Positions 4,224 to 49,172 of a DNA stretch of 64,000 nt are shown here, in pieces. The stretch is from Candidatus Moranbacteria bacterium GW2011_GWC2_40_12 (GTDB taxonomy: Bacteria; Patescibacteriota; Minisyncoccia; Moranbacterales; UBA11712): contig LBYD01000002.1 of assembly GCA_000995965.1 (NCBI GenBank), positions 71,889 through 135,888 on the forward strand, in the 5' to 3' direction. The notes below the pieces were generated by a model. That model was not told where the DNA came from. It made no database searches and saw only the letters and a list, made by a program, of their open reading frames with translations. The translations under genes and the position numbers were made by a program. Numbering within the stretch: position 1 is the first letter of the stretch; every line of letters begins with the position of its first letter.

Positions 4224-4994
4224 CTACAGGCTTTCGATCACCTTTTTAAATTTCAGAACTTTTTCCCTGTCATTCCTGTCGAAAAGAAACGGTTCGACAT
4301 CGCGCGCCAAAATCTGAAAATCCAATCCCTCGCATTTTTGCAAAAGTTTTTTCTTGAGTGCCGGAATTGTCGCGATGCCGGTTTTTGCTTTGAGATATTT
4401 GAAATTGGGCTTTGTTTTAGAAAGCAGAAAAACAACGTCGAAAAAATCCCTTCCCAAGCTGCGTTTTCGGTTGAAGATCGCGAAAATTTTCTGGCTCAAA
4501 ATGACATCCGGCGGAGTCACCCTGATTTCGCGAAAAACGTCGAACTTATTGAGAAGATGTATGTCCGGCTCGTATTTCATTCCATGCGCGGCAGTGTCAA
4601 TCTGGATCAATATTTTTTCTTCTTTCGCGACAGCCAACCCATACTTTTGCAGAATTTCAGGAAATCTCACATAGCAGCGGAAAGCGCCTTTGGAAACAAT
4701 TCTCGTCTCGACCAAAAACCCTTCTTCTTCGAGTTCCTTTTTGACGCTGGAAGCGATGGCTGAAAATTCCGGCAATTTCAGCCCGAAGTTGTCAAAATCA
4801 AGATCTTCCGAAAACCGGGTGTTATTGTGCACGATGCGAAGCACCGTTCCGCCCAAAAAGGAAAGTTTTCTGCCGAGTTTGTGGCGAAATACGATGCCCA
4901 GAATCTTGTATTGCAGATATTCCTTATACAAGAACCTGGGAACGCCCCGCAATTCCGGGGGATATTCTTCGAGAATGTTTTTGATGTCAAGCAT
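4224..4994 (-). CDS. nucleotidyltransferase AbiEii/AbiGii-family toxin (type IV TA)
   Basis: N-terminal FLGGTVL...SEDLDFD nucleotidyltransferase motif. Length 256 aa. An 8-nt overlap with the upstream AbiEi-like gene suggests translational coupling. Confidence 0.7.
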   Translation of the reverse strand: MLDIKNILEEYPPELRGVPRFLYKEYLQYKILGIVFRHKLGRKLSFLGGTVLRIVHNNTRFSEDLDFDNFGLKLPEFSAIASSVKKELEEEGFLVETRIVSKGAFRCYVRFPEILQKYGLAVAKEEKILIQIDTAAHGMKYEPDIHLLNKFDVFREIRVTPPDVILSQKIFAIFNRKRSLGRDFFDVVFLLSKTKPNFKYLKAKTGIATIPALKKKLLQKCEGLDFQILARDVEPFLFDRNDREKVLKFKKVIESL

Positions 4995-5947: not shown

Positions 5948-7633
5948 CTAAACTTTGCTCCATTTAGGGTATCTGGTTGTTCCCGTATTTACAATAGTTC
6001 TATCCTTTTTTGACATAGCATAGACGATATTCCTTATCTTATTCTTCTTCTGTTGTTCGTCTAAAATTCTAGGTAGTATATCTACAATTAATTTTTCGAT
6101 ATCATTTTTTGACGCTGTCTTATATTTTTCCAAATATTCAAGAATCATTTTTTTGTAATGATCGTCTTTAAATCCCCTCATCTTAATGTATTCACTTTTC
6201 TCTCCAGTTCGAGAAGCAACCATTGAAGAAATGTACAAATTAGGACTCCGCCCCTCAATTAGTCCGCGATTCCTAAGTTTTTTGTTTTCAATCGAGGAAA
6301 GTTCCTTTCTTTTTTGAACCTTGTCTAAAGCTATTATAGTTTTCAGGTCCAGATCTGGAATCTGGACAAGTTTTCTTGCATATTTGACATCTAGGACTTT
6401 TCCAATAATTACAAGCTTCACTTTATTTCCGGTCAAATCATATTCAGGGAGAGGGAAGAATCTATTTTTCTGAGATATAAACATCTTCTTTATCCCGCTC
6501 CCTATTGTATCAATCATATTTACATTAACCATCGCATCTGTGAGAAATTTATTTCTATAATACTCAGACGGGGAATCAGATTCTATTACATTCTCAATAG
6601 TCCCTGGAATAAAAGATCCGAGATTTGAAAAAACTAGATTATCATCTTCGTTTTCTACAACATTTATTTTTCCGCCTAATTCATAATCTTGGTGCGCAAT
6701 ACAATTATTGATAGCTTCTCGAATGGTTGCCGGATCATATCTATCAATTTCATCCGGGAATAGTGTTCTGTCGGAAATATACCTATAGCGCAAGTTTCTG
6801 ATTTTCTTATAAACATTGTCTACAGCTAAAATTAGAGGACAGCTGAAATGTTCATAATCTTTCTCAACTCCGTCTTTATTCTTTAAGATCCATGATATTT
6901 TTGCATTTGCGGGATTAATGAAGTGTTCTGATTCTGATTTTCCTAACAACACAATAGCAGTTCTGGTTATTTCGCTGTTTATTGTAATTTTTGCCTTATT
7001 CAAGAAAATTTCGTCACTCCAATTTCCAATTTCTTTTCCTGCAAGTTTAGGATTTTTGCGAGAGAAACCCTCTCTTGCTTTTTGAATCGCGATGGGATCT
7101 AAATCTTTAATTTTTGCGCCGTCACAAATTTGTGAACTCCAATCTTCTAATTTTGCCTGCGATCGAATCCTTTCTATTTTTTCGATACTTAATGGAACAA
7201 GACTTTCATTGTCTCTTGCATAATAGTGTCCCTGCCAAGCAGTCGGTATTCCTCTTGGCGCTGGTGGAATTTCAAAAATAATGACCCTCTTTCCATTTTT
7301 CTTAGCCTCATAAATTTCCACAAAAAAAATTCCGTTTATGGTTTGCTGAGCTATTTCATGTTTCAGGCTATTTAATTTAGAAAGATCCTTTCTATAGCTA
7401 GTTCCAATAATTTGCTTGTTGTTTTTGATACCAAAAATAAGCCAAGCAGAGTTTTTATTTTTTAAATTTGTCTCATTGCTAAGTGCGCTAAAGCATTTAC
7501 CAAGCTCCTTGAAATCAAAATTGGTTTTTGCTTCTTTCCATTCGACTACCTCATTTTCAGCCGGAAGAGAAAGAAGTAAATCGAGCTGTTTGATTATATT
7601 TTTCATAAAATATAGTTTATCTTTTCCTAACAT
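5948..7633 (-). CDS. AlbA_2 (Schlafen-like) domain + HATPase_c_4 ATP-binding protein (often annotated as putative transcriptional regulator / RecG-C-like)
   Basis: 561 aa. The N-terminal region has the divergent AAA/AlbA_2 signature. The central segment CIAHQDYELGGKINVV...NLGSFIPG resembles the HATPase_c_4 fold. Confidence 0.55.
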   Translation of the reverse strand: MLGKDKLYFMKNIIKQLDLLLSLPAENEVVEWKEAKTNFDFKELGKCFSALSNETNLKNKNSAWLIFGIKNNKQIIGTSYRKDLSKLNSLKHEIAQQTINGIFFVEIYEAKKNGKRVIIFEIPPAPRGIPTAWQGHYYARDNESLVPLSIEKIERIRSQAKLEDWSSQICDGAKIKDLDPIAIQKAREGFSRKNPKLAGKEIGNWSDEIFLNKAKITINSEITRTAIVLLGKSESEHFINPANAKISWILKNKDGVEKDYEHFSCPLILAVDNVYKKIRNLRYRYISDRTLFPDEIDRYDPATIREAINNCIAHQDYELGGKINVVENEDDNLVFSNLGSFIPGTIENVIESDSPSEYYRNKFLTDAMVNVNMIDTIGSGIKKMFISQKNRFFPLPEYDLTGNKVKLVIIGKVLDVKYARKLVQIPDLDLKTIIALDKVQKRKELSSIENKKLRNRGLIEGRSPNLYISSMVASRTGEKSEYIKMRGFKDDHYKKMILEYLEKYKTASKNDIEKLIVDILPRILDEQQKKNKIRNIVYAMSKKDRTIVNTGTTRYPKWSKV

Positions 7634-13398: not shown

Positions 13399-13483
13399 CG
13401 GAGAGGGAGGGATTCGAACCCTCGATACCTTGCGGTATACCCGCTTTCCAAGCGAGCGCACTAGGCCACTATGCGACCTCTCC
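13399..13483 (-). tRNA. tRNA-Ser (anticodon GGA), class II with long variable arm
   Basis: The reverse complement folds as a cloverleaf. Acceptor stem GGAGAGG/CCTCTCC with discriminator G. Anticodon stem CTCGC/GCGGG with loop TTGGAAA (U33-GGA-A37). Long variable arm, T-arm GAGGGTTCGAATCCCTC. No encoded CCA. Confidence 0.8.
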
Positions 13484-21243: not shown

Positions 21244-21379
21244 AAATCCTAAATCCTAAGCACCAAACTCTAAACAAATTCAAATTTTCAAAACCCAAAA
21301 TTCAAAACGTTTTGGATTTTGATTCTTAGAATTTTGATATTATTTAGGATTTCGATATTAGGATTTAGGATTTCAATTC

Positions 21380-25930: not shown

Positions 25931-26496
25931 TTCCCCAAATTCTTGAGTGCCGCTTTTATTCTACCCGACATATCTTTTTCATCCTTCGGCACACTTTTCA
26001 GGGCTTCGCGGGCCTGGGAAACAGAATATCCCAGAGAAACAAGCGCCTCAATAGCTTCTGAATCAGCTTTGGCCTCCCTTTGGTCTTCGCCGGGAAGCTC
26101 CGCAATCCTGTTTTTGAGTTCGAGAATGACTCGCTCGGCTGTCTTCTTTCCCACTCCCGAAACACGGGTGAGGATCGAAGAATCGCCTGATATAACCGCC
26201 GCCCGGATCGTTTTCGGTTCCGCAATGGAAAGGATTCCGACCGCCGCTTTTGGCCCAATCCCGGAGATGGAAATGAGGAGCTCGAACATTTCCAGCTCGT
26301 CCGGAATCAAAAAACCGTAAAGTGATAAAGTGTCCTCGCGGACATAGGTATGCGTGTACAATTCTATTTCTTTTTTTCCGGCGATTTTTCCCATCGTAAA
26401 ATCGGTGACGAATATTTTATATCCGACGCCGGAAACGTCCACGACGACGTAGTTATCGCGAAAAAAGGCGATTTTCCCCGTTATTTTGGCTATCAT
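25927..26496 (-). CDS. ruvA: Holliday junction DNA helicase RuvA
   Basis: MIAKITGKI...VDVSGVGYKIFV (OB domain), HhH motifs ISGIGPKAA and a C-terminal domain III. Confidence 0.9.
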   Translation of the reverse strand: MIAKITGKIAFFRDNYVVVDVSGVGYKIFVTDFTMGKIAGKKEIELYTHTYVREDTLSLYGFLIPDELEMFELLISISGIGPKAAVGILSIAEPKTIRAAVISGDSSILTRVSGVGKKTAERVILELKNRIAELPGEDQREAKADSEAIEALVSLGYSVSQAREALKSVPKDEKDMSGRIKAALKNLGK

Positions 26497-32443: not shown

Positions 32444-32572
32444 ATTTTTGGGAATTGAGAATTTAGAATCGAGAATTGTGAATGGGAATCAAGAACAAAG
32501 AACCCGGGATTCTAGATTCAATATTCCCATTCTAAGTTCAAAATTCGCAATTCTAAATTCTTTAAAGAGTTA

Positions 32573-37856: not shown

Positions 37857-37938
37857 ATTTATCGCCTTTTAATGCAAAATGCAAATATCAAAAATCAAAA
37901 TGAAAATCCAAAATAAAATATTTTTGAATTTTACATTG

Positions 37939-38460
37939 TCACTTTGAATTTTGATTTTTAAATTTTGAATTTATAATGATTTTCCTCGCATCCCCGTCGA
38001 GATGTTCAAATTCCAGCCAAATGGCACGACTGGGAATTATAGCCTTCATCCTCTCCGCCCACTCGACAATCACAATATTATTTTCCCCGGTGATAATTTC
38101 TTTCCAGCCCAATTCTATAATATCCCGTGATTTAACTCGATAACAATCTATGTGATAAACGTTTAAGGTTTGGCCTTGAGGAATTCCCCGACTTGTCGGG
38201 GAAGGGAAGGGCCGAACCTTGGAAAAATTTTGACTTTTAATTTTGTAGTGCTTCATCACCACAAACGTCGGGCTCGTGTAAGGACCTTTGATTTTCAGCC
38301 CCCGCAAAACTCCCTGCGCGAAAGTCGTTTTCCCGCTTCCAAGCTCACCCGTAAGACAGATTATCTCACCACCGCGCAATTCTTGGGACAACACTTCACC
38401 CAGTTTTCGGGTTTCACTAGCGCTTTTCGTAAAAAATGTTTCCAAATTACCAATAGCCAA
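37939..38460 (-). CDS. tsaE: tRNA threonylcarbamoyladenosine biosynthesis ATPase TsaE
   Basis: Walker A GELGSGKTT and the conserved TSPTF motif. Confidence 0.85.
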   Translation of the reverse strand: MAIGNLETFFTKSASETRKLGEVLSQELRGGEIICLTGELGSGKTTFAQGVLRGLKIKGPYTSPTFVVMKHYKIKSQNFSKVRPFPSPTSRGIPQGQTLNVYHIDCYRVKSRDIIELGWKEIITGENNIVIVEWAERMKAIIPSRAIWLEFEHLDGDARKIIINSKFKNQNSK

Positions 38461-42262: not shown

Positions 42263-42345
42263 TTATTAGATATTAGATTGGAGTAATGTATATAATCTTA
42301 ATTTTTATGCATATGCATAAAAATTAAGATTCCCCTGAAAAAACT

Positions 42346-44595: not shown

Positions 44596-47500
44596 ATGCC
44601 TGAAGAGACAAATAAAAACAAAACTGCTGGAGAAATACACGGCCATCACGAGGAGGAAGTCAGCCGGATCCTCTCCAAGATGAAACACGAATCCGAAGAA
44701 CAGCAAGCGGCCAGCCTGGCCGCTACTTTAGGTTTTCCTTATATCGATCTCAATATTTTCCCCATTGATCCGGAGACACTCCAAGTCATTCCGAAAGAAG
44801 ATGCTCTGAGACTTGAACTGGTTCCCATTCAAAGAGCCGGGAAAAATGTGAGCTTGGCTATTTCAAACATTTCTCACCCGGATCTCAAGAAATATCTTGA
44901 GAAACTGGAAAAAGAAGAGGGATACCGGCTGAAAATTTTCATATCTTCAAAAACCGGTTTCCAGAAAACCTTGGAGCGATACAAATTCATCGCTTTGGCC
45001 GATAATCTGGAAGACTTGCGCTTGACACTTTCCGGAACAGACCTCGCGGAATTTGAAAAAAATCTGAGAGATGTCATTGACCTCAAAAAAAGAATCACCG
45101 AAATACCCACGACGGAGGTGATAAACATCATCATGGCCGGCGCCGTAAAAATGGAGGCTAGTGATATCCATTTTGAACCTCAACAGGACGGCATCCGTTT
45201 GCGCTATAGATTGGACGGAATTCTTCAAAACATCACCGATCTTCCTTCGCAGGTATACCACTATATCCTTTCCCGGGTGAAAATTCTTTCCGGAATGAAA
45301 ATAAATATCCGAGACGTCGCTCAAGATGGGCATTTTTCCATCGAAATTGAGGAGAACGAAATAGACGTCCGTGTTTCAATTCTCCCCGGAAATTTTGGGG
45401 AGAATATAGTGATGCGCCTCCTGAATCAACGCTCCATAGCCTTGAAATACGACGACCTTGGCCTTCGAGGACTGGCCTATGACAAGCTCCGGGAGGAAAT
45501 GAAAAAGCCCAATGGGATAATCCTCAACACCGGCCCCACCGGATCGGGAAAAACGACAACGCTCTATGCCATTGTCAACACCCTCAACTCCCCGGAAGTG
45601 AAAATTATCACTGTTGAAGATCCGGTTGAATACAAAATAAAGGGAATTTCCCAGACCCAAGTTTCCAAATCGCGCGGATATACCTTCGCCAATGCTCTTC
45701 GGGCCATTGTCCGTCAGGATCCGGATGTTATTTTGGTCGGTGAAATAAGAGATGATGAAACGGCTCAAATTGCTGTCCACGCGTCCCTTACCGGACACCT
45801 GGTTCTTTCAACCCTCCACACCAATAGCGCTGTTGAAACGACGCCGAGGCTCACCGATATGGGAATAAAGCCTTCGCTCATTCCCGCGGCGGTGAATGCC
45901 ATTATCGCCCAGCGCCTGGTTCGAAAACTCTGTCCGGTCTGCAAGGAAAAGTATACTCCCGCCCGGGAAAGCGTGGAAAGCGTGAGGAAAATTCTCTCAG
46001 TAATATCTCCCAAGGCAAAACTTTCTGTCCCAAAAAATATTGATTCTTTTTTCCGGGCCAAGGGATGCCCGAAATGCCGCGGACTGGGATATAAGGGCCG
46101 GATTGGAATCTTCGAAATTCTGACTCTGAATGAAGAAATTTCCCAAAAAATAACTGAAATGGCCTCGGAATCGGAAATTTTATCTCTCGCCCTTGAAGCC
46201 GGAATGGTTACAATGCTTCAAGACGGGATTTTGAAAGCCCTCGAAGGAATAACTTCCCTCGAAGAAGTTCAAAGGGTGACTGGAGAAGGAAAGTTTTTGG
46301 AAGAACTCTATGAAAAAATCATTACCCAGCTGCTTCTCCGTTCCGTTTTGATAAGAAAAGACATCGCCCAAAAAATAGAGGGCATAAAAAATGATTTCTC
46401 AAAATATCAGGAACTGGTGAACACGGCCAACCCAGAAGAGATACTAAGCCTAATCATTGCTGCCGGAATCAAACTTCAGGCCGGCGACATTCATATCGAG
46501 CCGGAAGAAAATATTGTGAAAATCCGCTTCCGAATTGATGGAATTCTTCAAGATGCCGCCCAAATACCCCTATCAGATTACCCGCATGTTATGGGTGATA
46601 TCAAAATTCTCTCCGGTTTCAAGGCGACTGACGTTGAATCCGGGGTGAAGGACAGCCGGTTTTCCATAAGCCTGGAAGAAGGTGTATTTTCCGAAATTGC
46701 AAAGAGGGAAATTGATGTCCGCGTTTCAATAATTTTGGGCGGCTATGGGGAAACGGTCGTTATGCGGCTTCTCGGCCAAGGCGACCAGGAGACTGACATC
46801 TTTAAGCTCGGCATCCGCCAGCAGAATCTGGACAGGCTTTTGGAAAAAATAAAAAAGCCCAATGGGATAATCCTCAACACCGGCCCCACCGGATCGGGAA
46901 AAACGACAACTCTTTATTCTTTGCTTTCTCTTCTCAACAAGCCGGGTGCAAAAATTATAACCGTTGAAGACCCAATCGAATACCGTCTCAAAGGCATCCT
47001 GCAGACTCAAGTGAATGAAAAGAAGGGTTACACTTTCCCAATGGCTCTGCGCGCGCTTCTCCGCCAAAATCCGGATATCATGATGATTGGTGAAATCCGC
47101 GATGAAGAAACCGCGAAAATTTCCGTTCAGGCGGCGCTCACCGGTCATCTAGTTCTTTCAACGCTTCACACAAACAACGCGGCCAGCTCCATTCAGCGGC
47201 TCATCAATATGAGCGTCAACCCAACTGATATTGCTTCATCGGTAAATGCTTTCATGGCCCAACGCCTGGTGCGTTTTCTTTGCCAATCCTGCAAGAAAAA
47301 AGTGCGGCCAAGCCAGAAAGTGAAGAGCCAGATTGAAAGAATGCTTGGAACGATATCGGAAAAAGCGGGAATCGAAGTCCCGAAAAAAGTTGATTATATT
47401 TTCGAAGCGCAAGGCTGTCCAGAGTGCAACAACATCGGCTACAAGGGAAGAACTGCGGTCAGTGAAATAATGGATATGACAAAAGAGATGGAAGAGCTTG

Positions 47501-47640
47501 TCACCCGAGGACCGACTACCTCCGAGGTGGAAGATCTTGCCAGGAAACAAGGAATGCTGACCATGGCCCAAGACGGGATTCTGAAGGTCGTTGAAGGGAT
47601 CACGACTATGGAAGAAGTGGAAAGAGTAACAGAGGAATAA
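44596..47640 (+). CDS. tandem-duplicated GspE/PilB-type secretion/pilus ATPase (two complete N-domain + ATPase modules in one 1014-aa protein)
   Basis: Each half has a T2SSE_N-like domain and an ATPase core containing Walker A, Asp box, Walker B and His box, followed by a tetracysteine motif (see finding 2 for the motif sequences). Confidence 0.85.
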   Translation: MPEETNKNKTAGEIHGHHEEEVSRILSKMKHESEEQQAASLAATLGFPYIDLNIFPIDPETLQVIPKEDALRLELVPIQRAGKNVSLAISNISHPDLKKYLEKLEKEEGYRLKIFISSKTGFQKTLERYKFIALADNLEDLRLTLSGTDLAEFEKNLRDVIDLKKRITEIPTTEVINIIMAGAVKMEASDIHFEPQQDGIRLRYRLDGILQNITDLPSQVYHYILSRVKILSGMKINIRDVAQDGHFSIEIEENEIDVRVSILPGNFGENIVMRLLNQRSIALKYDDLGLRGLAYDKLREEMKKPNGIILNTGPTGSGKTTTLYAIVNTLNSPEVKIITVEDPVEYKIKGISQTQVSKSRGYTFANALRAIVRQDPDVILVGEIRDDETAQIAVHASLTGHLVLSTLHTNSAVETTPRLTDMGIKPSLIPAAVNAIIAQRLVRKLCPVCKEKYTPARESVESVRKILSVISPKAKLSVPKNIDSFFRAKGCPKCRGLGYKGRIGIFEILTLNEEISQKITEMASESEILSLALEAGMVTMLQDGILKALEGITSLEEVQRVTGEGKFLEELYEKIITQLLLRSVLIRKDIAQKIEGIKNDFSKYQELVNTANPEEILSLIIAAGIKLQAGDIHIEPEENIVKIRFRIDGILQDAAQIPLSDYPHVMGDIKILSGFKATDVESGVKDSRFSISLEEGVFSEIAKREIDVRVSIILGGYGETVVMRLLGQGDQETDIFKLGIRQQNLDRLLEKIKKPNGIILNTGPTGSGKTTTLYSLLSLLNKPGAKIITVEDPIEYRLKGILQTQVNEKKGYTFPMALRALLRQNPDIMMIGEIRDEETAKISVQAALTGHLVLSTLHTNNAASSIQRLINMSVNPTDIASSVNAFMAQRLVRFLCQSCKKKVRPSQKVKSQIERMLGTISEKAGIEVPKKVDYIFEAQGCPECNNIGYKGRTAVSEIMDMTKEMEELVTRGPTTSEVEDLARKQGMLTMAQDGILKVVEGITTMEEVERVTEE

Positions 47641-47646
47641 ATATAA

Positions 47647-47811
47647 AAAAGCCTTTCAATCTGTAGACAAATCCCGCAACTAGGGAATCGCGGGGCAGGA
47701 ACAGTGCCGAGGAGCGGCTAAGCCGAAACCGGGCCGTCCATGTCTGGGCAAAAAAGTCCCCAGGAAGGAAAGTTACGAGCTCCCCTTATGTCTACAGATT
47801 GAAAGGCTTTT
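47647..47811 (+). ncRNA. candidate structured RNA / palindromic element (unknown class)
   Basis: A perfect 23-bp closing stem AAAAGCCTTTCAATCTGTAGACA / TGTCTACAGATTGAAAGGCTTTT encloses a 119-nt insert that is visibly GC-richer than the flanks (about 60% GC). The insert contains UCCCGCAAC and GGAAGGAAAG motifs. Confidence 0.35.
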
Positions 47812-47933
47812 AAAGTTCGTTAAATAAGTCCCTTTTTCGCAGGACAGTCCAGTCTATCATAGGCAATATTTTTTGTCAAGAAGTGCTAAATGCCTTATAC
47901 TACCAATAAAATACGACATTCCGAATACCAATT

Positions 47934-48944
47934 ATGATTACCTCCTCTGCTGAACAAATCGATGATACAAAGCTTGATATAACCTTGCGGCCGCAAGCTT
48001 TTTCGGAATACGTCGGTCAAGAGAATACAAAGAAAAACCTGAATATTCTCATAAAAGCCGCTCAAAAACGAAAAGAGCCTATCGAGCACGTCCTCCTTTA
48101 CGGACCGGCGGGCTTGGGAAAAACGACCTTAGCCCACATCATAGCCAATGAAATGGGAGCTAATATTCGCACTACGTCCGGACCGGCCATTGAAAAAGTA
48201 GGAGACCTTGGCTCGATTCTGACAAATTTAAGCGACGGAGATATTCTTTTCATTGACGAGATCCACCGGCTGAACAAACTCATTGAAGAAGTTCTTTACC
48301 CGGCAATGGAAGACTTCAAGCTGGATATTATTATCGGAAAAGGGCCCTCGGCAAAAACTCTCCAGCTTGATCTTCCGCGATTCACGCTGATCGGAGCCAC
48401 AACCCGCCTGGGATCAATATCCTCGCCGCTTCGCAATCGCTTTGGCGTCATTCACCGCCTTGATTTTTATGAGAATGAGGATATTGAGAAAATACTCCAC
48501 CGCTCGTCGAAAATTCTTGAGATCCCAATCGACAGTGCCGGAGCCGCTTCAATTTCCCGTTCCAGCCGCCGCACGCCTCGAGTGGCCAACCGGCTTTTAA
48601 AACGGGTTCGCGATTTCACCCAGGTCGAAAACGAGAAAGAAATAAACGAAAAATTGACTCTCCAGGCTCTCAAAAATCTTGAAATTGACGCGCTTGGCCT
48701 CGAGCCCACTGACCGGCATATCCTTGCGACTATCATTGAAAAATTCTCCGGCGGACCGGTTGGCATCCAGACACTAGCTGCCGCTACAATGGAAGAGACT
48801 GAAACTATCGAAGATGTTTATGAGCCATTTCTTCTCCAAATCGGATTTCTAGCTCGCACTCCCCGCGGAAGAGTCGCCACGGAACAGGCTTACAAACATT
48901 TAGGAATAGAGTATAATAAAGAAAACCAGAATAAGCTATTGTAA
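47934..48944 (+). CDS. ruvB: Holliday junction DNA helicase RuvB
   Basis: [12 protein letters not shown]..., Walker [16 protein letters not shown] and a winged-helix C-terminus. Confidence 0.95.
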
Positions 48945-48953
48945 CCAAAAGTC

Positions 48954-49172
48954 ATGCCGCTAATTTCAATATTTTACTTGATCCTCGTTCTTGTCTATCT
49001 CGCCATCGGCGCAGCAATTATTTTTCATATGCTTTACTACCGGATAAATCGAAAAGTGGCTACGGTAATGTTCTTCATATACTCAACCGGGGGCATAATA
49101 CTTCTTACTTCAAATTTTTTCCTCTTCCGGATAGTCAATTGGTATAATATTTTCTCCGACTCTGGATTCTAA
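48954..49172 (+). CDS. small membrane protein (72 aa)
   Basis: Two TM helices. Starts 10 nt after the ruvB stop. Confidence 0.35.
   Translation: MPLISIFYLILVLVYLAIGAAIIFHMLYYRINRKVATVMFFIYSTGGIILLTSNFFLFRIVNWYNIFSDSGF

Follow-up and report, generated by a model that had tools for sequence, protein, structure and literature searches.

A structured small RNA family encoded next to ruvB in Moranbacteria and related Patescibacteria

What is the G+C-rich palindrome that lies between a pilB-like gene and ruvB in the genome of Candidatus Moranbacteria bacterium GW2011_GWC2_40_12? In the window (the whole stretch of 64,000 nucleotides analysed here), we found a perfect 23-bp inverted repeat, in which positions 47647-47669 (AAAAGCCTTTCAATCTGTAGACA) pair with their exact reverse complement at 47789-47811. 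The G+C content of the 119 nt enclosed was 58.8%, compared with 44% in the left flank, 34% in the right flank, and 42.9% in the window. The first-pass annotation had reported both the perfect stem and the GC-rich interior, and both were computed to be true. It had read the element either as a structured noncoding RNA, perhaps an SRP-like one, or as a REP/MITE-like mobile palindrome. The two genes that border the element are as follows.

44596-47640, plus strand: pilB-like gene, 1014 aa, with the Pfam domains MshEN and two T2SSE ATPase domains
47934-48944, plus strand: ruvB, with the Pfam domains RuvB_N, AAA_lid_4, and RuvB_C; divergent neighbour of the element

The element is a small RNA of a newly described, strongly conserved noncoding RNA family of Moranbacteria and related Patescibacteria, whose members are about 170-200 nt long. 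RuvB homologues placed the source organism in Candidatus Moranbacteria, within the candidate phyla radiation (CPR; Patescibacteria). We are highly confident that the minus strand encodes a true, new structured RNA here. In total, 129 distinct homologous sequences were gathered from genomes and metagenomes of Moranbacteria and related Patescibacteria, and sequence patterns were used to gather the members. In the genome scan, one genome per GTDB species was searched for the exact pattern GGTTTCGGCT-N6-8-TCCTCGNCAC, which yielded 116 loci, namely 82 true members and 34 chance matches in unrelated phyla. The members were labelled as Moraniibacteriota, as Parcubacteria or Patescibacteria group, or as Elulimicrobium, or they were mislabelled, and none of the 34 chance matches exceeded 13 bits with the covariance model. 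The metagenome scan used an independent P1/P2 pattern (CTGTAGACA-N3-4-GGGG-N5-6-TAWCTTTY), and all of its 59 loci, which were absent from the seed, were strong model matches (86-173 bits). The covariance model R1 scored the window at 155.6 bits (E = 4e-40; minus strand, 47645-47813), a match that is partly by construction because the window sequence was in the R1 seed. In addition, among the best 120 RuvB matches listed, every contig with a 74-100% identical RuvB had a homologue of the element in the interval from the pilB-like gene to ruvB. The core of the element remained conserved while RuvB diverged to about 61-75% identity. No family members were found in a viral contig collection.

The conserved fold is a four-way junction, which consists of the closing stem P1, the hairpins P2 and P5, and a long bulged arm, P3-P4. 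It was derived by reading the alignment manually and with RNAalifold. The parts of the RNA in the window are listed below from the 5′ to the 3′ end.

47789-47811, minus strand: 5′ strand of P1, AAAAGCCUUUCAAUCUGUAGACA in RNA sense
47765-47787, minus strand: hairpin P2, which reads AAGGGGAG-CUCGUAA-CUUUCCUU in the window clade
47756-47761, minus strand: 5′ strand of P3, GGGGAC, with its partner GUUCCU at 47697-47702
47703-47755, minus strand: central arm, enclosed by P3
47750-47755, minus strand: U6 internal loop of the central arm
47749-47737 and 47713-47706, minus strand: doubly bulged helix, GCC-CA-GA-CAU-GGA with UCC-UC-GGC
47727-47724, minus strand: UUCG-type apical loop, which caps the variable P4
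47705-47703, minus strand: unpaired ACU, which joins the central arm back to the 3′ strand of P3
47697-47702, minus strand: 3′ strand of P3, GUUCCU
47673-47694, minus strand: hairpin P5, CCCGCGAUU-CCCU-AGUUGCGGG
47647-47669, minus strand: 3′ strand of P1, UGUCUACAGAUUGAAAGGCUUUU

About nine bases are unpaired in the junction. The window thus carries P1-P5 together with the inner P1 CUGUAGACA/UGUCUACAG and the bulged helix GYC-MA-GA-YNU-GG/CC-UC-GRC. The local hairpins that had been named at first reading do exist in this fold, with CCCGC..GCGGG being helix P5 and CGGCTAAGCCG the tip of P4. The minimum free energy fold of the single window sequence gave P1, P2, and P5 correctly and mispaired the centre, where a local CUGGG/CCCAG hairpin appeared in place of the long-range P3. 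RNAalifold, run on a MAFFT alignment with misplaced gaps, did not recover P3 for that reason. P3 was therefore entered manually and later confirmed on the alignment, and the pairing register of P2 in the window clade was set by hand.

Covariation was strong in two sets of sequences. In the seed alignment of 65 sequences, 90.9% of the cells were paired, against 44-51% when the partners were slid by 1-3 columns; compensatory changes were seen at 43 of the 62 pairs, and none of 500 shuffles attained any of the observed pairing measures. Among 47 distinct metagenome sequences found with the independent pattern, the corresponding values were 92.4% and 41-47%. Furthermore, 14 of the top 15 column pairs in APC-corrected mutual information were proposed base pairs, and a search for pseudoknots by the same measure gave nothing convincing. 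One further candidate pair, which joins the final base of the P2 loop to the R of CCUCGRC, was canonical in 100% of cases and was dropped, as it follows the two-clade split.

The helices differ in how they vary. Within P1, the inner 9 bp are conserved and the outer 13 bp are variable, often with a mismatch between the two parts; on its 5′ strand the inner 9 nt (CUGUAGACA) are kept family-wide, and the outer 13 nt vary. Compensatory changes affect 18 of its 23 pairs, for example CUGUAGAC/GUCUACAG to CUGCAGGC/GCCUGCAG. The closing stem can also be substituted from CUGUAGACA/UGUCUACAG to UUGCAGGCA/UGCCUGCA, and the core is near-invariant in the same alignments. A stem of 21-23 bp is a conserved feature of the whole family, which runs counter to the earlier argument that 23 bp of perfect pairing is long for a housekeeping RNA. 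P2, which reads UUGGGGRC-UUCUAUCUUUU-GUCCUCAA in the main clade, was 93.7% paired with compensatory changes at six of eight pairs, and the long-range 6-bp helix P3 was 94.8% paired with changes at four of six (for example GGCGUC/GACGCU and GGCAAC/GUUGCU). In P5, the compensatory pairs numbered 8/8 in the seed and 7/8 in the metagenome set. The doubly bulged helix has the consensus 5′-GYC[MA]GA[YNU]GG with 5′-CC-UC-GRC; its P3a part covaries as GYC/GRC and becomes AUC/GAU in metagenome members. In the metagenome set, which was unselected on the central arm, CMAGA, GG, and CCUCG never varied. In the same set, the apical GGU[UUCG]GCU was changed to UUCC, UCUC, GGU[GCAA]GCU, or a long insertion. 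Large insertions can occur in the P2 loop, whose sequence is clade-specific, and a long hairpin or other sequence may stand in place of the U6 loop. As these loops vary while CMAGA, GG, and CCUCG stay constant, the invariant part of the RNA is the junction with the bulged helix.

The strand was decided by the alignment. As a single sequence, the element folded far better than its shuffles on either strand (z = -7.0 on the plus strand and -7.8 on the minus strand); both strands fold well, and single-sequence folding therefore cannot give the strand. However, when the helix cells were read as minus-strand RNA, there were 2902 Watson-Crick pairs, 684 G·U pairs, and 96 A·C cells. The excess of G·U over A·C places the RNA on the minus strand, because a plus-strand reading turns the 684 into mismatches. 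The near-identical strain variant L002 has two changes in the 3′ strand of P1 (the left arm on the plus strand), which give G·U pairs in minus-strand RNA and A·C mismatches on the plus strand. The sole reverse-strand model match in 0.75 Mb reached 21.6 bits. No conserved ORF was seen in the alignments of the element, and an internal AUG was not conserved. Thus, the proposal of a structured noncoding RNA was borne out by covariation, whereas the plus strand that had been folded for it was not the strand of the RNA.

None of the known RNA families accounted for the element. With Rfam 15 at gathering thresholds, the only match in the whole window was a tRNA at 13399-13483. When E <= 10 was allowed in the region 47500-48000 and in three other members (L019, L025, and L085), no SRP, 6S, RNase P, or tmRNA match appeared, and the sub-threshold matches (UnaL2, snoRNAs, mcrA, MCS4, L10 leader, rnk_pseudo, and mir-5592) were spurious. 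The Rfam scan suggested in the first-pass annotation therefore gave no SRP, RNase P, or 6S match, and its SRP-like reading did not survive in any of these four members. In addition, no riboswitch of Rfam matched the members scanned, and ARAGORN found no tRNA or tmRNA in 47400-48000, so that a tRNA or tmRNA identity was rejected on both searches. Searches of the full-text literature on noncoding RNAs of Patescibacteria/CPR turned up nothing relevant to such an RNA.

The likeness to SRP RNA and RNase P RNA had been drawn from the strings UCCCGCAAC, GGAAGGAAAG, and GGAAAGUUACGAGCUCC. All of them are present on the plus strand; because the RNA is on the minus strand, they lie on the wrong strand. 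Moreover, the P2 region holds GGAAGGAAAG and GGAAAGUUACGAGCUCC in the window clade, and the main clade reads GGGGGCUUCUAUCUUUUGUCC there. The strings are thus real, their proposed meaning does not hold, and the likeness is due to chance. SRP RNA (RF00169) was rejected as no model match was found and the apical loop, which is UUCG, GCAA, or an insertion, lies about 9-12 bp from the conserved bulge; long apical insertions are incompatible with SRP helix 8. RNase P RNA was rejected as it had no Rfam match and the main clade lacks the GGAAAGU..GAGCUCC string, which in the window lies on the non-functional strand. RNase P RNAs of types A and B are roughly 300 nt or more in length, whereas the element has 165-190 nt.

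The palindrome does not behave as a mobile element. With up to three mismatches, the arm sequence occurred at two sites in the 64-kb window, which are the arms themselves, and none of 100 shuffled sequences was matched. The search for extra copies, which had also been suggested, gave a single covariance-model match in the window, and the pattern occurred once in the complete 1.05-Mb genome CP064994.1. Each locus yielded one model match, apart from L021, which has two in tandem. No flanking direct repeat (target-site duplication) was seen by eye at the element. The arms diverge by compensatory changes, which are expected of an RNA helix and not of transposon ends. A REP/MITE identity was therefore set aside, with one copy, arms that change by compensation, and a site that is fixed in 135 of 136 loci.

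That fixed site is next to ruvB, which was the divergent upstream neighbour in 135 of the 136 loci with enough sequence (median distance of 191 nt from the 5′ end of the model to the ruvB start). The pilB-like gene lay convergently downstream in 102 of 126 loci, and more distant neighbours varied by lineage. A same-strand ORF was found directly downstream in 18 loci, in some of them beyond a terminator. These ORFs are mutually unrelated, including SET-domain proteins in one clade, secreted hypothetical proteins, and others, and they look like insertions. Meanwhile, ruvA is not linked to ruvB and is located at 26086-26496 in the window; its presence there refutes the idea that the small RNA substitutes for a missing RuvA.

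The transcription signals around the element are listed below, with those of the small RNA on the minus strand.

47873-47901, plus strand: ruvB promoter, TTGTCA-17-TATACT
47851-47879, minus strand: small RNA promoter, with the -35 TTGACA at 47879-47874 and the TG-extended -10 TAGACT at 47856-47851
47812-47845, minus strand: predicted 5′ leader, with the putative start G47845
47640-47650, minus strand: U-tract UUUUUUAUAUU, which starts within the last four pairs of P1

The small RNA promoter has an A-rich spacer of 17 nt and scored 10/12 with TG in the consensus scan. The sigma-70-type arrangement TTGACA(A)n...TGnTAnnnT with a 17-nt spacer was present in 121 distinct upstream regions, and the promoter lies about 40 nt upstream. 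In addition, a conserved R-U-C lies 6-8 nt past the -10 across the members, and the leaders are about 35 nt long at the median; judging from this motif, the small RNA likely starts at R-U-C, near 47845. A leader hairpin (GUCCUGCGAAAAAGGGAC, 47845-47828) was seen in the window clade only. The ruvB promoter is closely packed against these signals. In the window clade, the -35 elements of ruvB and the small RNA overlap by 5 bp on opposite strands (47873-47879), and ruvB has TTGTCA-17-TAnnnT in 25 members. In the main clade, an extended -10 of ruvB (TGnTAnAAT) lies a few bp from the -35 of the small RNA.

At the other end, the U-tract adjoins the stop codon of the pilB-like gene (47638-47640), and the element begins 6 nt past that stop. 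The outer P1 of the window clade (GCCUUUC/GAAAGGC) is followed by U6 on the minus strand and by U4 on the plus strand. In this clade, the G+C-rich outer P1 leads into UUUUUUAUAUU, and transcription of the small RNA is probably terminated by P1 itself, with the U-tract completing a likely intrinsic terminator. The other clades have a canonical terminator apart from P1, a median of 38 nt further on, which was detected in 71 of 121 regions versus 10 in shuffles. Terminator-like hairpins were also present on the opposite strand in 54 of 121 regions, compared with the 71; terminators on both strands are expected in a zone between convergent genes, and these hairpins do not discriminate between strands. 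Termination is at most a secondary role of the element. Taken together, these signals suggest that the small RNA is an independent transcription unit with its own promoter.

What the small RNA does may be approached from its pattern of conservation. The invariant bases of the small RNA sit in the doubly bulged helix and the loops are replaceable, and we therefore favour a trans-acting, protein-binding RNA. On the evidence of the alignments, this pattern favours a surface for protein or tertiary contacts over base-pairing, and it fits a ligand-binding or self-cleaving RNA equally well. Protein binding as the mode of action is thus put forward tentatively. The whole statement, that a new minus-strand RNA family with its own transcription unit acts in trans by binding protein, has in our judgement about an even chance of being right. 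Under the favoured reading, the sigma-70-type promoter at 47879-47851 would drive the small RNA from a start near 47845, and the transcript would end at the U-tract after P1 in the window clade or at the separate terminator in other clades. The mature RNA would be stable and would bind a protein in trans, with the bulged helix and the junction as the recognition surface. P1 would shield the ends of the RNA and might be a processing stem, and the peripheral loops would be caps only. In the window clade, the outer P1 with its U-tract would double as a terminator facing the pilB-like gene. Since the promoters are arranged back-to-back, the small RNA and ruvB probably share promoter occupancy or compete for it. 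The near-absolute adjacency to ruvB could reflect a locus-specific role in cis and not in trans, and the pairing with ruvB possibly ties the RNA to DNA repair or recombination.

Several other functions were weighed against this reading. It should be noted that the small RNA could belong, as a highly divergent representative, to a functional class already known, 6S RNA foremost. A 6S-like RNA would act as a promoter decoy to which the sigma-70 RNA polymerase holoenzyme binds; P1 would stand in for the DNA downstream, the junction for the open bubble, and the bulged central arm for the duplex upstream (-35). Its size, long closing stem, single copy, and strong promoter with leader agree with this, as do an apical loop that tolerates changes and a conserved inner P1 that might be the template of a product RNA. 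Moreover, 6S RNA is hard to find by homology in new phyla. However, the 6S models of Rfam stayed silent at E <= 10 in four diverse members, the site of the bubble is occupied by two 8-bp hairpins with 6-8 covarying pairs each, and the core is conserved far above the usual level of 6S RNA. We consider this function unlikely, and we place a cis-acting riboswitch or attenuator at the same level. Such a sensor would let a ligand or factor choose between a stop at the terminator and read-through, either antisense into the pilB-like gene or into a same-strand downstream gene. The order of promoter, fold, and terminator is that of a riboswitch, invariant junction and bulge bases with variable outer helices are typical of aptamers, and the 18 loci with a same-strand ORF and the 102 of 126 with a convergent pilB-like gene offer possible targets. 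Nevertheless, most loci have no same-strand gene and the ORFs present are unrelated; as no coherent gene follows the element, a classical riboswitch is disfavoured. Furthermore, no alternative pairing of P1 with the terminator was evident, P1 is itself the terminator stem in the window clade, and the adjacency to ruvB upstream is tighter than any adjacency downstream.

A small RNA that acts by base-pairing is also doubtful, and slightly more so. Here the pyrimidine-rich P2 loop (CUAUCUUUU), U6, and CCUC would pair with purine-rich ribosome-binding sites of target mRNAs, and the promoter, terminator, and size of the RNA as well as C/U-rich stretches resembling anti-Shine-Dalgarno seeds would suit it. 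However, the single-stranded parts are the least conserved, with the P2 and U6 loops changed or replaced, the CCUC motifs sit in helices, and covariation-backed structure of this extent is unusual in seed-type small RNAs. Another reading is a Holliday-junction mimic that would bind or titrate the branch-migration and resolution machinery of RuvA-RuvB-RuvC, comparable to 6S RNA in its imitation of an open promoter. This role would account for a four-helix-junction RNA kept beside ruvB in 135 of 136 loci with ruvA elsewhere; yet the junction has about nine unpaired bases, RNA helices are A-form, and conservation of gene order alone could give the adjacency, so that we regard such a mimic as very unlikely. 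It is even harder to believe that termination or insulation between the ruvB promoter and the pilB-like gene is all that the element does, with an incidental inner structure. The window clade does have an A-tract, a G+C-rich stem, and a U-tract 6 nt past the pilB stop, and terminator-like hairpins occur on both strands of the intergenic region. But the conserved 120-nt core, four compensating internal helices, and a promoter of its own would all be superfluous, and most clades have a separate ordinary terminator after the element. The least credible explanation, to which we give almost no weight, is one along the lines of the earlier reading, namely a divergent SRP, RNase P, or tmRNA, or REP/MITE-like palindromic DNA. 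It draws on the terminal inverted repeat, which is long and perfect, and on the short plus-strand matches to E. coli 4.5S RNA and RNase P helix P4. Those strings occur in the window clade only and on the wrong strand, Rfam and ARAGORN were negative, and the element has a single copy at a fixed site with arms that compensate, G·U pairs included.

To our knowledge, CPR bacteria have tiny genomes and nearly no experimentally known regulators or noncoding RNAs beyond the universal ones. The small RNA is lineage-wide and has a near-invariant core, 43 of 62 covarying pairs, and a strong promoter of its own, which puts it in the same evidential class as OLE, raiA, and, before its function was found, 6S RNA. 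Orphan structured RNAs of this kind later gave new biology. The family is missing from Rfam 15, and current annotation pipelines therefore pass over the gene in every Moranbacteria genome, an omission that our covariance model R1 could mend immediately. The constant association with ruvB provides a testable hypothesis of a link to DNA repair or recombination. Even if the function proves to be an ordinary one, for example that of a divergent 6S RNA, a missing piece would be added to the core set of RNAs known from Patescibacteria.

The comparison with known systems sets the small RNA apart from each of them while showing some shared traits. Like REP/MITE elements, it has a perfect terminal inverted repeat and is intergenic; unlike them, it is single-copy and syntenic in more than 100 genomes, has a conserved, structured core and its own promoter, and shows G·U covariation on one strand only. 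With the 4.5S SRP RNA it shares paired ends, a bulged conserved helix with a tetraloop, and a few strings on the plus strand. However, the helix-8 motifs of SRP RNA (a GNAR loop by symmetric and asymmetric loops, and GGAA/AGCA) are absent here, and the small RNA has the extra arms P2 and P5. Y RNA and YrlA resemble it in a long end-to-end stem, a conserved inner segment, and a cloverleaf-like module, whereas no T-loop or D-loop signatures were seen in the small RNA. In addition, no rsr (Ro60) gene was seen near the element, its neighbours being ruvB and the pilB-like gene. The 6S RNA (ssrS, RF00013) is closer in general outline, with a length of about 170-190 nt, a long closing stem at the ends, a single copy, a stand-alone gene with a strong sigma-70-type promoter and leader, and a variable apical region. 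Nevertheless, the centre of the small RNA is a four-way junction with two stable hairpins and no open bubble, its core is highly conserved, its position is fixed beside ruvB, and no 6S model matched it. The raiA motif RNA and OLE RNA often have their own promoter and terminator, and their biochemical functions are at most partly known. The small RNA differs from both in its Patescibacteria hosts, its junction topology, its neighbours, and its negative Rfam result, and it is shorter than OLE RNA; like them, it is a lineage-restricted RNA with strong covariation, several helices, and invariant internal loops and junctions.

The small RNA was present in two tandem copies in L021, the homologous locus of the single-cell genome AM-311-N19 (6611-6787 and 6989-7158, both on the minus strand), where the copies lie about 200 nt apart and each is followed by its own terminator. 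This is the sole multi-copy case among the loci seen. In addition, insertions within the RNA were found in some related loci. For instance, in two metagenome members (L178, 6003-6257, and L180, 8279-8532), about 85 nt of inserted AT-rich sequence takes the place of the central arm's apical tetraloop. Meanwhile, in the clade of L062, L066, L085, L116, L117, L119, L121, and L125, a long hairpin replaces the U6 internal loop, and a SET-domain (methyltransferase-like) gene has been inserted downstream on the RNA strand, past a terminator. Furthermore, one lineage (L011) carries a 106-aa ORF immediately downstream of the small RNA on the same strand (4408-4728, minus). This ORF has a strong ribosome-binding site, its N-terminus resembles a signal peptide, and no terminator separates it from the small RNA.

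It should be noted that the record titles of some loci (Bathyarchaeia archaeon, Fimivivens, and Bdellovibrionales) conflict with the contig content. The loci concerned are L076, L121, and some 25 that bear the title "uncultured Bdellovibrionales bacterium". Each of these contigs has a Moranbacteria-type small RNA, which is adjoined by a Moranbacteria-type ruvB wherever upstream sequence exists. The conflict is probably caused by mis-binning or placeholder taxonomy.

Four other inverted repeats were found in the window:
21244-21373, inverted repeat with 65-nt arms at 75% complementarity and no spacer
32458-32561, inverted repeat with 25-nt arms at 88% and a 54-nt spacer
37877-37972, AT-rich 46-nt inverted-repeat pair
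42294-42331, perfect palindrome of 19+19 bp

The genes around the small RNA and ruvB, together with ruvA, are as follows:
44596-47640, plus strand, pilB-like gene whose 1014-aa product is unusual in fusing an MshEN domain to two complete ATPase domains of the T2SSE (type II/IV secretion) type
48954-49172, plus strand, 72-aa ORF immediately 3′ of ruvB
26086-26496, minus strand, ruvA

In most of the related loci that were inspected, the pilB-like product is conserved, with a length of 1007-1014 aa; the gene calls in L003 and L008 are shorter. The 72-aa ORF had no match in a Pfam search, but most related loci have an equally long gene call at this position. The ruvA gene was identified by tblastn of the window with an E. 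coli RuvA sequence as the query (39% identity, E = 1e-20). In most bacteria, ruvA is located directly upstream of ruvB. Here, ruvA lies about 21 kb away from ruvB, and the slot immediately upstream of ruvB is occupied by the divergently transcribed small RNA.
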